Origin: a virus
Direction: 5' to 3' (one strand)
DNA: 64,000 bases
Virus record (IMG/VR): IMGVR_UViG_3300021256_000064
Span: 1 to 64,000 of that record
The translations under genes and the position numbers were made by a program. The notes under the pieces were generated by a model. The model was not told where the DNA came from. It saw nothing but the letters and a program-made list of their open reading frames with translations, and ran no database searches. Every line of letters begins with the position of its first letter. The stretch's first letter is position 1. Below, in pieces: positions 34,001 through 37,000 of the stretch.

Positions 34001-37000
34001 ATATAATGCATCAACAGATGCTGAATATAAAAAGAAACTTGCCGCAGATATTGAAGCATATAATAAATAGATTCAAAAAGCACAAGAAGATTTAAAGGAT
34101 ACTCAATCAAAAGTTAATAATTATGATAAACTTCGTGAGGAAATGCAAGATTTGGTTGATGAGATTGAAAAAATTACTCAAGAGCAAATTGAAATTAATA
34201 TTAAGAAATTCCGCACAGAAGTTTAGATTCGTCTTGATATGGGTGAAGCTGAAAGAGATTGGAATGATTTTGTTAGAAATGTAATTAATAGTGATGACGT
34301 TCTTAAAGACACTAATTTTGATAAAGTATTTGAGGATGCTAAACAAAATTTAGGTGATTTAACTTCTTACTTTGAAACTAAATAGGTTGAAGCTTTAGCT
34401 AATAAAATGATGTAGACAAGATAGCAGATTGAAAGTATTGATGCTACTGGAACATCTTCAATTTATGGAGATAATAAAGCGCAAGCTATGTAGGATTTAC
34501 AAAATGATCTTAAAGAGTTACAGGATCAAATGAAAGATATTAATGGTTTAATTCAAGATATTGATGAAGCTATTTTAGATACTGTTGATGATATTGATGA
34601 TCAATTAGACGAGAGACTTGATGCATATGAGTTTGTTCAAGATTTGATTGAACATGATTTAGATTTAATGTAGCTATTATATGGCGATAGAAATTATAAT
34701 GCTATGGATAGTTATTATAAGCAACTTCAAAAGAATGAAATGGATAGATTAAATCTATTAAGATTATAGGGTGAATTCTGGAAAAAGAATTATGAAGATG
34801 CTATTGCAAATGGCCAAACTAATTTAGCTAAAGAATATGAAAAGAATTATAAAGATGCTATTGAAAATATTAATAGCGTAATTGAAGAATCTATTCAAAC
34901 TCTTACTGATAAATATGCTAATGCTATTAATAAAATTTTTGATGATTTAAATAAGAAAATAACCGATGGAAAAGGATTAGATTATTTAGATCAACAGTGG
35001 TAGTTAATGACTAAAAATGCGGATGAGTATTTAGATGCTATTAATGCGGCTTTTGGTGTGCAACAACTTGAATCTAAATTCATTGATGCTATTAATAATA
35101 CTGATACTTTAAAAGGCCAGCGCGCGTTAAAGAAGGTCATGGATGAACAACTAAATAACCTAAGAAGTAAAGAGAAACTTACTCAATATGATGTTGATAG
35201 AGCAGAGAAGTTATTACAAATTGAACAAGCTAGAATTGCTCTTGAAGCTGCTCAATCTAGTAAAACTTCTTTAAGATTACAAAGAGATTCTCAAGGTAAC
35301 TATTCTTATCATTATGTAGCTGATCAATAGGGTATTTCAGAGGCGGAAGATAGCTATAATCAGGCGGTTAATGATTTATATAATTTTGATAAAGATCAAT
35401 ATAAAAATAATTTACAATAGGTACTTGCTTCTGTACGAGAATTTGAATCTTAGATAGTAGATATTTAGAATGATGCTTCTTTAACACGAGAAGAGAAGAT
35501 TGAACGATAGGCCCTATTACGAGAACAAAGTATGGAATATATAACTGGATTAATGCAACAAAATTCTGATATTCGTACTAATATCGCGGAATCTGCGGTA
35601 AATGATTTAGCTAATTTATATGAATAGGATGCTGCAAATTATGAAGCTATGACTCTTGAAGAAAAAGAATCTTTAGTTTAGAATTTACTCACACCTTGGG
35701 GTGAAGGTATCCAAGCTATGATAGATTATATTAATGGTGAAGGTGGATTCTTACCTGTTACTCAAGCTTCTTTTGAAGAATTAACTGAGGTTACTAGAGA
35801 CTATGAAATGGAATTAGCTCAAATGGCGGCAGAAGCTGGAGTTGATTTAAATATGGTTTCACAAGGTGTTGACCAAGTTAAAGATGAATTTGAATTATTA
35901 GGTATGGAAAATGCTGAATTAATTCAATTAATGTACGGTGAACTTCAAGCCATTCTTGATTTAAGACAAGTTGCTCAAGGATTAGTTACTGAGTATCAAA
36001 ATGTTTGTAATGCTGCTATTCAAGCTGTCACGTAGATTCAAGCCTTTATTAAGAAACAACAAGAAGCAGCTGCTTCTTACCAACAGACCGCCGCAGCTTA
36101 TGAGGCGATGATTATTAGAATTCAAAATGCCAATGCCGCACTAGTTGCTAATCCTCTAGGAGATTATACTGGTGGATATGATGGCGGCGGAGGCAGCTCT
36201 GGAGGTTCTGGTAGCGGAGGCTCTGGTGGAGGTGGAGGCGGTGGCGGCCGCCCATCTGGTAGTGGAAGTTCTACCTCTTCTAGAGCTCCTGTAACGCCAG
36301 CTTATAGAGGAGCTATGGATCATACTCCAATTGCTCTTTTAAAAAGAACTGGTGGAGGATGTTTCGCCGCAGGAACTAAAATTTATATGGCAGATGGAAC
36401 TTATAAAAATATTGAAGATATACAAGTAGATGATTTAGTTATTGCCTATAATGATAAAACTCAAAAATATGAAAATAAAAAAGTAATAAAAACTTTTATT
36501 CATTTTGATGTTAAGAAATTAGTATTAATAAAATTTTCTAATGGTATTGAATTAAAAGTTACTCCTGGACATCCTATATTAACAACTGAAGGATGGAAGT
36601 CTTTAGATATAGAAAATTCTTTATATGAACATGGAGTAGAAGCAACTCTACTTAATGTTAATGATGAAGTTTTAAACTATTTTGGGGATACTTTTGTAAA
36701 AGAAATTGAGTATATGCCAGAATTAGATTATATTGTTTATAACTTAGAAGTTGATGAATGTCATACTTTTTTAGCAAGTGGAATCGTTGTTCATAATAGA
36801 AAAGTGGTTATGGATACAGGAGGTTATACTGGAGACTGGGGATCTGATGAAGGAAGAGTTGCGATTCTTCATGAGAAATAGCTTGTATTAAATAAAGAAG
36901 ATACTAAAAATTTCTTAGATGGAGTTATGGTGTTAAGACAAATTACAAGTAATCTTGGTGGAAGTATTCAAGCTAGAGTTTCTGGATTAAAATCTAGTTA

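Follow-up and report, generated by a model that had tools for sequence, protein, structure and literature searches.

What does a Hint domain do near the end of a phage tail tape measure protein (TMP): does it cut the protein, splice itself out, or stay in place? The question is raised by the IMG/VR virus record IMGVR_UViG_3300021256_000064, of which positions 1 to 64,000 (the window, 64,000 nucleotides) were analysed. A reading made from the sequence alone had placed a Hint or bacterial intein-like (BIL) domain at 36370-36810, at the C-terminus of the TMP, and had argued for the BIL type instead of a splicing intein. A Hint domain is indeed encoded there, although its limits lie about 10 nucleotides away from those proposed, and 36360-36797 is a genuine member of the HINT superfamily. 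It is, however, internal to the TMP. We consider it rather probable, from alignments and a structure model, that it is a type-A-BIL-like domain that is catalytically competent as predicted. By analogy with type A BILs, the most likely action would be an autocatalytic excision that splits the TMP body from its C-terminal piece, possibly accompanied by some ligation.

In searches with the isolated 146 residues, the Pfam models PF14890 Intein_splicing (49.3 bits, cut-off 35.8, E 5.9e-13), PF07591 PT-HINT (37.1 bits, cut-off 27.7) and PF14623 Vint (33 bits, cut-off 27) were all matched. Both ends of the domain were also recognised by NCBIfam models (TIGR01445 intein_Nterm, 35.3 bits, cut-off 24.5; TIGR01443 intein_Cterm, 25.9 bits, cut-off 15.6). 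The peptide on which that reading relied, TGGGCFAAGTKIYMADG...VTPGHPILTTEGW...ECHTFLASGIVVHN, is encoded on the plus strand, and the N-terminal Cys, the block B TxxH, the terminal His-Asn, the Arg codon that follows and the preceding Gly/Ser linker were all located (Table 1). Searches of PDB with phmmer returned the Ssp DnaB mini-intein (1mi8, 1.2e-8), the Tetrahymena BIL2 (6tmm, 8e-8) and a C. thermocellum BIL (2lwy, 1.4e-7), as well as Mtu RecA mini-inteins. In the alignment to Ssp DnaB, VTPGHPILTTEGWKSLD stands opposite ATANHRFLTIDGWKRLD and ASGIVVHN opposite ANDIIVHN, and blocks B and G align with the catalytic motifs of that intein (TPGH opposite TANH). The AlphaFold2 model (31 sequences) has a pLDDT above 90 over model residues 21-166, which correspond to the domain, and disordered flanks. 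In a Foldseek comparison with PDB, the Tetrahymena BUBL BIL2 occupied ranks 1-4 (6y75/6tmm; E 1.5e-13, TM 0.87, the best obtained) and the C. thermocellum BIL rank 5 (E 1.4e-10), followed by the DnaB, RecA and gp41-1 mini-inteins and then Hedgehog. All 66 structures matched at E <=1e-3 are inteins, BILs or Hedgehog.

The host gene extends beyond the ORF (open reading frame) that is visible in the standard code, where the domain lies in a frame of 257 codons for amino acids (36108-36881) closed by TAG. Once TAG is taken as a sense codon, the total length of long ORFs in the window rises from 15,111 to 24,161 codons, and one open frame of 3030 codons extends from 28050 as far as the TAA at 37140. 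The gene (28056-37142, plus strand; ATG at 28056, TAA at 37140-37142) thereby encodes 3028 amino acids (336 kDa) and contains 64 in-frame TAG codons. A match to PF10145 PhageMin_Tail over residues 195-401 (E 6e-31) identifies the protein as a TMP, an assignment to which its extreme length and a C-terminal end conserved among TMPs also point, and the gene is colinear with the TMP genes of the related loci L001 and L002. Downstream of the TAG at 36879-36881, a conserved-looking protein sequence goes on in frame. Relatives have GAA, GAG or a conserved TAG at this codon and are then colinear with the window up to ...AAQRAMRR and the stop; in L001 this TAG is retained, in frame, at HEK-TAG-LVLNK. 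The 114 residues that follow the domain match the extreme ends of phrog_34405 (2555-2668 of 2675), phrog_4211 (2525-2610 of 2625) and phrog_24, and in tblastn the TMP ends of Enterococcus phages (about 140 kb), Lactococcus 949-like phages, Bacillus Tsamsa/FADO-like phages and the gut phage phAss-1. An end of the TMP at 36881 was rejected on account of the 64 in-frame TAGs, the conserved downstream sequence and the sense codons of the relatives. The domain is internal (residues 2769-2914 of 3028) and not C-terminal as had been supposed, because the TAG is read through, the relatives are colinear past 36879 and the last 114 residues match TMP ends in PHROG. The correction of the TMP end is an example of how stop-codon recoding can mislead annotation at the level of domains.

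The assignment to type A BILs rests on the definition in PMC4031507, according to which such domains are Hint domains that end in His-Asn and lack a nucleophile at position +1, the first residue after the domain. An N-terminal thioester is formed, Asn cyclisation cuts the C-terminal bond, and the amino group released by this cut can then react with the thioester, which results in splicing by aminolysis, but cleavage products dominate (PMC4031507). The window domain has the His-Asn and an Arg at +1. It shares the C-terminal HN with canonical class 1 inteins, but not the Cys, Ser or Thr at +1, nor the conserved insertion site, being situated in a variable linker. A PT-HINT of a polymorphic toxin would not fit either, as the 114 residues downstream are the conserved TMP C-terminus. 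Structural similarity ranks BILs first to fifth, whereas the E-values from phmmer do not clearly separate BILs from inteins. The preference for a BIL over a canonical splicing intein, already expressed from the letters alone, is backed by the variable +1 residue, the structure matches to BILs, the non-conserved linker site and the lack of an endonuclease domain.

To place the domain in its family, relatives were collected with a query of the domain plus its flanks and separately with the C-terminal module, the conserved part of the 114 residues. Among 1.84 billion representative proteins, 11,556 relatives of the Hint domain were found, of which the best 150 were inspected for architecture. These 150 include giant proteins in which a single Hint domain lies 107-135 residues before the C-terminus, namely P0065 (3683 aa), P0072 (3899), P0067 (3129), P0102 (3234), P0082 (3393) and P0128 (2091), and, with the same position, P0063, P0074, P0091 and P0121. 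The module that follows is of either a GGYTG type or a GGL...WLDG type. Counting the window and L060, about 24 cases of the TMP type were recorded, which are metagenomic; the end of the domain lies 107-135 residues from the C-terminus in TMPs that range from 1212 to 3899 residues and carry two types of C-terminal module. In the window, it ends seven residues before the conserved GGYTGDW motif. The motif [KR][KR]xxGG/C is common to the TMPs with a Hint domain and is missing at this place in L001, which has none.

An alignment of 13 TMP-type domains (41-65% identity) showed that C1, F2, T74, H77, H151, N152 and a GW motif are invariant and that Gly is found at -1 in 12 of the 13, while +1 is R, T, M, A, I or K. 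All 37 family domains that were scanned close in HN. Over the approximately 24 TMP-type domains, +1 is Ala in 12, Thr in 3, Met in 2-3, Arg in 2, Ser in 2, Lys in 1 and Ile in 1, i.e., non-nucleophilic in about 80%. It differs among the TMP fragments of like architecture that the query of domain plus flanks returned: Thr in P0001, P0003 and P0004, Ala in P0002 and P0020, Arg in P0005, and Met in P0008 and P0009. Position +2 is Lys in most members. These patterns suggest that the full catalytic set of the domain is under purifying selection and that a nucleophile at +1 is not required.

Some related Hint domains have other settings. In P0118, P0144, P0071, P0089, P0090, P0098 and P0022-P0034 they close the protein, with 2-13 residues after the HN, in tail-fibre-like giants (1657-1891 aa), Cys-rich repeat proteins and proteins with signal peptides, and many other proteins contain tandem arrays with HN/KGGGCF junctions. 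A large family of BIL-like Hint domains without a +1 nucleophile appears to exist in this world of phages and hosts. Among deposited phage genomes (INPHARED), no Hint domain was found in a TMP; the matches were helicase and terminase inteins with at most 37% identity. The Ruminococcus phage match H15 was discarded as a TMP case, since it is a hypothetical protein of 432 residues and not a giant gene of TMP size. No copy of the TMP-type domain was found in the representative bacterial genomes of GTDB, searched with the TMP-Hint alignment and one peptide pattern.

We think it very probable, judging by the conserved residues and the modelled fold, that the window domain is an active autoprocessing domain. 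In the mechanism that we propose by analogy, Cys1 would attack the carbonyl of Gly(-1), and an N-S acyl shift at Gly2768-Cys2769 would convert the bond to a thioester. Asn146 (Asn2914) would then cyclise to a succinimide and free the C-terminal piece with a new alpha-amino group on Arg+1 (Arg2915). Hydrolysis of the thioester would yield a TMP body of 307 kDa, the Hint domain of 16.7 kDa and the C-terminal piece of 12.7 kDa; aminolysis by the amine of Arg2915 on the freed piece would instead yield a spliced TMP of 320 kDa. If the domain is active, we lean towards cleavage as the dominant outcome, regard a predominance of splicing as distinctly less likely, and consider any other outcome improbable. 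Cleavage is ranked first because type A BILs mainly cleave, because the +1 residue drifts freely even among close relatives (Thr in P0001, Ala in P0002), and because the products would mimic the gpH*/gpHC of lambda and the pb2C of T5 at the same topological site. Splicing of the flanks may also occur, since type A BILs can splice and a minority of the family has Thr or Ser at +1.

Several observations weigh against this reading. The domain is missing from P0006, whose flanks and C-terminal module share 89% identity with those of the window protein, from P0007, and from P0010, a close relative of P0001, which has it. The locus that encodes P0006, L001, has 80-82% nucleotide identity to the window: 82% up to 36242 and 81% from 36807, with 112 nucleotides in L001 and 564 in the window in between. 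The homology passes through ...YRGA(M/A)(D/T)H(T/N)P, after which LLKRTGGG-[Hint]-RKVVMDT in the window sits opposite GASIYGSYAT in L001, with GGYTGDW next in both. The immediate flanks of the domain do not align in this comparison, and the exact boundaries of an insertion are therefore not provable. A search with the C-terminal module gave 228 loci on viral contigs; among the TMPs of the best 80, for which presence of the domain was scored, a single one has a Hint domain at this site (L060, with Ala at +1). The other sampled TMPs have different sequences there, including a recurrent "...YPIHV...GWL.K.QL" segment. From the close relatives without it and the one case in 80, the domain is judged to be dispensable for TMP function in general. 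Furthermore, 5 of the approximately 24 TMP-type domains have Thr or Ser at +1, which would fit canonical splicing, and an Asn is found where the Ssp DnaB intein has the block-F Asp.

On these grounds, the domain may be a tolerated selfish insert that is obliged to splice: a mini-intein that has lost its homing endonuclease and restores a continuous TMP, to no benefit of the phage. The spliced protein would have the junction ...KRTGGG-RKVVMDTGGYTG... and yield the peptide TGGG-RKVVMDTGGYTGDWGSDEGR. We hold this to be unlikely, albeit the main rival. It accords with Intein_splicing as the best Pfam model and with the match to both NCBIfam models of intein ends; with the rarity of the domain and the closely related alleles with and without it, P0010 (KRGGG/VTMATGGYTG) looking like an empty site; and with the 5 relatives that have Thr or Ser at +1. 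Type A BILs can in addition splice without a +1 nucleophile (PMC4031507), and actinobacteriophage TMP inteins are listed in the preprint 10.1101/2025.01.02.630785. Set against this are the Arg at +1 and the non-nucleophilic +1 residues of about 80% of a family in which the other catalytic residues are invariant, the site in a variable linker, the lack of an endonuclease or a remnant of one, and the BILs as nearest structures. No nested or antisense ORF of at least 60 codons that could represent an endonuclease was found within the domain on either strand. The identity of the domain between the window and its relatives also runs parallel to that of the C-terminal module (64 and 67% for P0001, 53 and 55% for P0005, 45 and 44% for L060), which suggests co-descent and not recent homing. 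The exception is P0008 (52 and 31%), in which the C-terminal module differs. Recent horizontal mobility is hence unsupported, and the comparison favours an old residence with repeated loss and occasional recombination.

The composition of the domain differs from that of its gene. Its 13 Glu codons are all GAA or GAG and none is TAG, whereas TAG makes up 22.5% of GAR plus TAG codons in the rest of the TMP (P about 0.04), and its G+C content is 25%, as compared to 32% for the TMP gene. The domain may have had a history other than that of the rest of the TMP, or the difference may be due to chance.

A decayed Hint domain that has lost its activity and persists in the mature TMP, where it would serve passively as a globular spacer or plug, is very improbable. 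The Asn at the place of the block-F Asp in Ssp DnaB and the dispensability of the domain in close relatives would agree with such a relic, but Cys1, the block B Thr and His, and the His-Asn are strictly kept at 41-65% identity, with HN at the end of all domains scanned, and it is this invariance of the catalytic residues that makes an inactive relic unlikely. A 16.7-kDa fold in each copy of the TMP would presumably also have to fit into the tail lumen or tip.

Another outcome that we judge highly doubtful is a transfer as in Hedgehog or BUBL proteins, in which the Cys1 thioester would be resolved by a foreign nucleophile, so that the C-terminus of the TMP body becomes covalently attached. The best structure match is a BUBL BIL2, Lys is conserved at +2 in most TMP-type domains, and the nearest Hint domains outside TMPs form the very C-terminal end of secreted or tail-fibre-like proteins, a setting that permits N-terminal chemistry alone. 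A candidate for the acceptor was not identified, however, and the invariant terminal Asn points to C-terminal cleavage as well. With the same slight probability, the acceptor could be a tail-tip protein, through one of its lysines, or an amine or lipid of the cell envelope, with concurrent release of the 12.7-kDa piece; if true, the TMP would be a covalently anchored injection conduit.

The readthrough of TAG on which the true TMP end depends raises the further question of which residue is inserted. In related gut phages, TAG has been assigned to Gln (PMC10607447; PMC9523058). For the window TMP and the next gene, the residues of L001 and L002 opposite the TAGs are Glu (43), Gln (19), Thr (12) and Asp (11), with log-likelihoods of -325.6 for Glu and -379.1 for Gln. 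The columns of the C-terminal module were scored over an alignment of 69 distinct modules. In the window, L001, L003, L008 and L010, TAG occupies two columns in which 64 of 64 and 57 of 62 sense-coded sequences have Glu (the second of them also in L011 and L012), and a disjoint set of phages (L032, L063, L068, L069, L075, L076, L078) uses TAG where 66 of 66 and 65 of 66 have Gln. A ThyX-like gene (5956-6618, minus strand) contains 10 TAGs, and five of the TAG columns are dominated by Glu among 120 homologues; the homologues with Gln at these Glu-dominant columns are the closest relatives of the window and have Gln at every TAG column, a uniformity that would be expected of machine translation with code 15. 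Five structural genes (49494-58574, minus strand) with 53 TAGs again put Glu first, as do all three independent gene sets: the opposite residues are Glu (121), Lys (43), Asp (36) and Gln (32), and the log-likelihoods -1170 for Glu, -1366 for Lys and -1379 for Gln. Sites with at least 75% of one residue number seven for Glu and one for Gln. The signal is not pure, since Pro, Arg or Leu is found opposite some TAGs. Taken at the level of aligned codons, the evidence rejects Gln for the window clade and points to Glu, as which TAG behaves in these comparisons.

The suppressor tRNAs give no such separation. The tRNA array in the window (60397-63397, minus strand) comprises 13 tRNAs, none of which reads TAG through a CUA anticodon, and is truncated at the edge of the window. 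All close relatives have a tRNA(CUA) a few kb beyond the position of the right edge of the window (L085 4904-4977, L087 937-1012, L088 4509-4580, L094 1006-1081). The tRNA of the window clade has 61-71% similarity to both Glu and Gln tRNAs and its isotype is not separated. In 80 related loci, 29 tRNA(CUA) were found that belong to at least three families (a window-clade, a Gln-like and a class-II Ser-like one, the last marked by its long variable arm), which suggests several different reassignments of TAG among the cousins. In the TMPs of L014, L015, L016, L024, L028 and L036, an in-frame TGA stands opposite Trp (SAYG(TGA)LKQSQL against SAYGWLKKSQL), and some cousins seem to recode TGA as Trp instead of TAG. 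ARAGORN called a tmRNA at 8425-8702 of L093, within the tRNA array of this related phage (tag ADNYTYQMAA, then stop).

Within the window, the use of TAG varies strongly with gene class: none is used in the genes of 8013-14641 and 21862-25475, and the tail and structural genes (28050-41989 and 49494-58574) have 10-64 each, late-type genes other than the TMP gene having 10-30. Recoding is reportedly a mark of late genes, a pattern that this distribution fits.

Table 1. Positions in the window of the Hint domain, its flanks and the end of the tape measure gene.
Feature	Position	Strand	Basis or remark
Hint (BIL-like) domain, 146 aa, 16.7 kDa	36360-36797	+	Pfam, NCBIfam, AlphaFold2, Foldseek
Cys1 (TGT)	36360-36362	+	
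Block B T-P-G-H	36561-36572	+	
Terminal His-Asn, Asn146 = AAT	36792-36797	+	
N-flank K-R-T-G-G-G, positions -6 to -1, Gly at -1	36342-36359	+	
+1 Arg (AGA, 36798-36800) and +2 Lys (AAA) after the domain	36798-36803	+	
Gly/Ser-rich low-complexity linker GGYDGGGGSSGGSGSGGSGGGGGGGGRPSGSGSSTSS	36171-36281	+	Translation
C-terminal part after the domain, 114 aa, 12.7 kDa	36798-37139	+	
Conserved module GGYTGDW...HEK(TAG)LVLNKEDT...FPNVNSKR(TAG)IEEAF...AAQRALRR	from 36819	+	
In-frame TAG, apparent ORF end	36879-36881	+	Glu column in 64/64 sense-coded relatives
Further in-frame TAGs of the C-terminal part	37041-37043, 37080-37082	+	
15-nt direct repeat, left copy AGGAGATTATACTGG (G-D-Y-T-G)	36158-36172	+	14/15 identical
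15-nt direct repeat, right copy (G-G-Y-T-G)	36818-36832	+	Spacing 660 nt
Inverted repeat (16 bp, perfect; loop of 4 nt) that overlaps the TMP gene's true TAA	37133-37168	+	Repeat search

The Gly/Ser-rich linker is common to relatives with and without the domain. The two copies of the direct repeat flank the entire cassette of linker and Hint domain, but the pair of motifs is also found in L001 and is therefore a family feature, possibly one that serves as a recombination substrate. The inverted repeat may act as a terminator or form a regulatory hairpin. A second Gly-rich linker, GGGFKYKQASHGGGSKGGSGGGGGKGRGGGGGKGGKGGSGK, lies in the middle of the TMP (33498-33620), and the related P0082 has a second Hint domain at about residues 2130-2280, after a mid-protein run of Gly (GGGGGGG/CFIAGT...LAHN/KGG). 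From this protein, Gly-rich linkers may be preferred sites for Hint domains. In L002, a locus with the Hint domain, an insertion of about 1.5 kb is present in the 5' part of the TMP gene (L002 1495-3034, opposite 28711/28718 of the window); it encodes an HNH_3/NUMOD endonuclease (ORF at L002 1615-2724) and is missing from the window. An intron or a free-standing homing endonuclease is the probable explanation.

Compared to the solved BILs (2lwy; 6y75/6tmm), the window domain has the same Hint fold, N-terminal Cys, TxxH, His-Asn, lack of a +1 nucleophile and variable host region, but the host is a phage TMP, the place is fixed before a conserved C-terminal module, and the sequence identity is 27-30%. 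With class 1 mini-inteins (Ssp DnaB 1mi8; Mtu RecA) it has in common a size of about 140-155 residues, blocks A, B and G, an E-value of the order of 1e-8, the match to intein models and the occurrence of related alleles with and without the domain; it differs in the Arg at +1, the non-conserved site, the Asn in place of the block-F Asp of DnaB and the absence of any trace of a homing endonuclease. As in PT-HINT proteins, PF07591 is matched and the domain directly precedes a C-terminal module of about 100 residues that would be released, but this module is shared with TMPs that lack the domain and is not a polymorphic toxin, and there is no logic of an immunity gene. Actinobacteriophage TMPs (IPR013491) are described in a 2025 survey preprint as a new host of inteins, which mostly contain LAGLIDADG (10.1101/2025.01.02.630785). 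They resemble the present case in having a Hint-type element in the TMP gene, in unrelated phages and hosts, and no other mention of a TMP intein was found in the literature; phiCbK, CampHawk and Mooltan were considered and dismissed, as their inteins lie in TerL, RNR or UvrD. While BIL-type Hint domains are a known kind, their recurrent and positionally fixed presence in TMPs is undescribed in the literature searched. Phage tail proteins would thereby join the hosts of BIL-type domains, and small Hint domains that are independent of a nucleophile could be of use for protein engineering.

The closest functional parallel is the maturation of the TMPs of lambda and T5. In lambda, gpH is converted to gpH* with loss of gpHC (about 14 kDa), and in T5, pb2 releases the 92-residue pb2C; the cut lies in a Gly-rich stretch close to the TMP's C-terminus and the C-terminal piece remains at the tail tip, but what catalyses the cut and the need for it have been unknown since 1974 (PMC12617516). 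The window linker, Hint domain and 114-residue piece of 12.7 kDa hold the same topological place. The TMPs of lambda and T5 are without a Hint domain and cleavage in the window is predicted, the likeness being one of topology. If cleavage does take place, the domain would be a built-in counterpart of the maturation cut of gpH and pb2. An uncultivated phage family of the Firmicutes type, with a self-processing Hint domain at the equivalent site, would then offer a self-contained system in which to test the cut, and a C-terminal fragment of about 330 residues would show whether the TMP body and the C-terminal piece part, as gpH* and gpHC do, or are religated.

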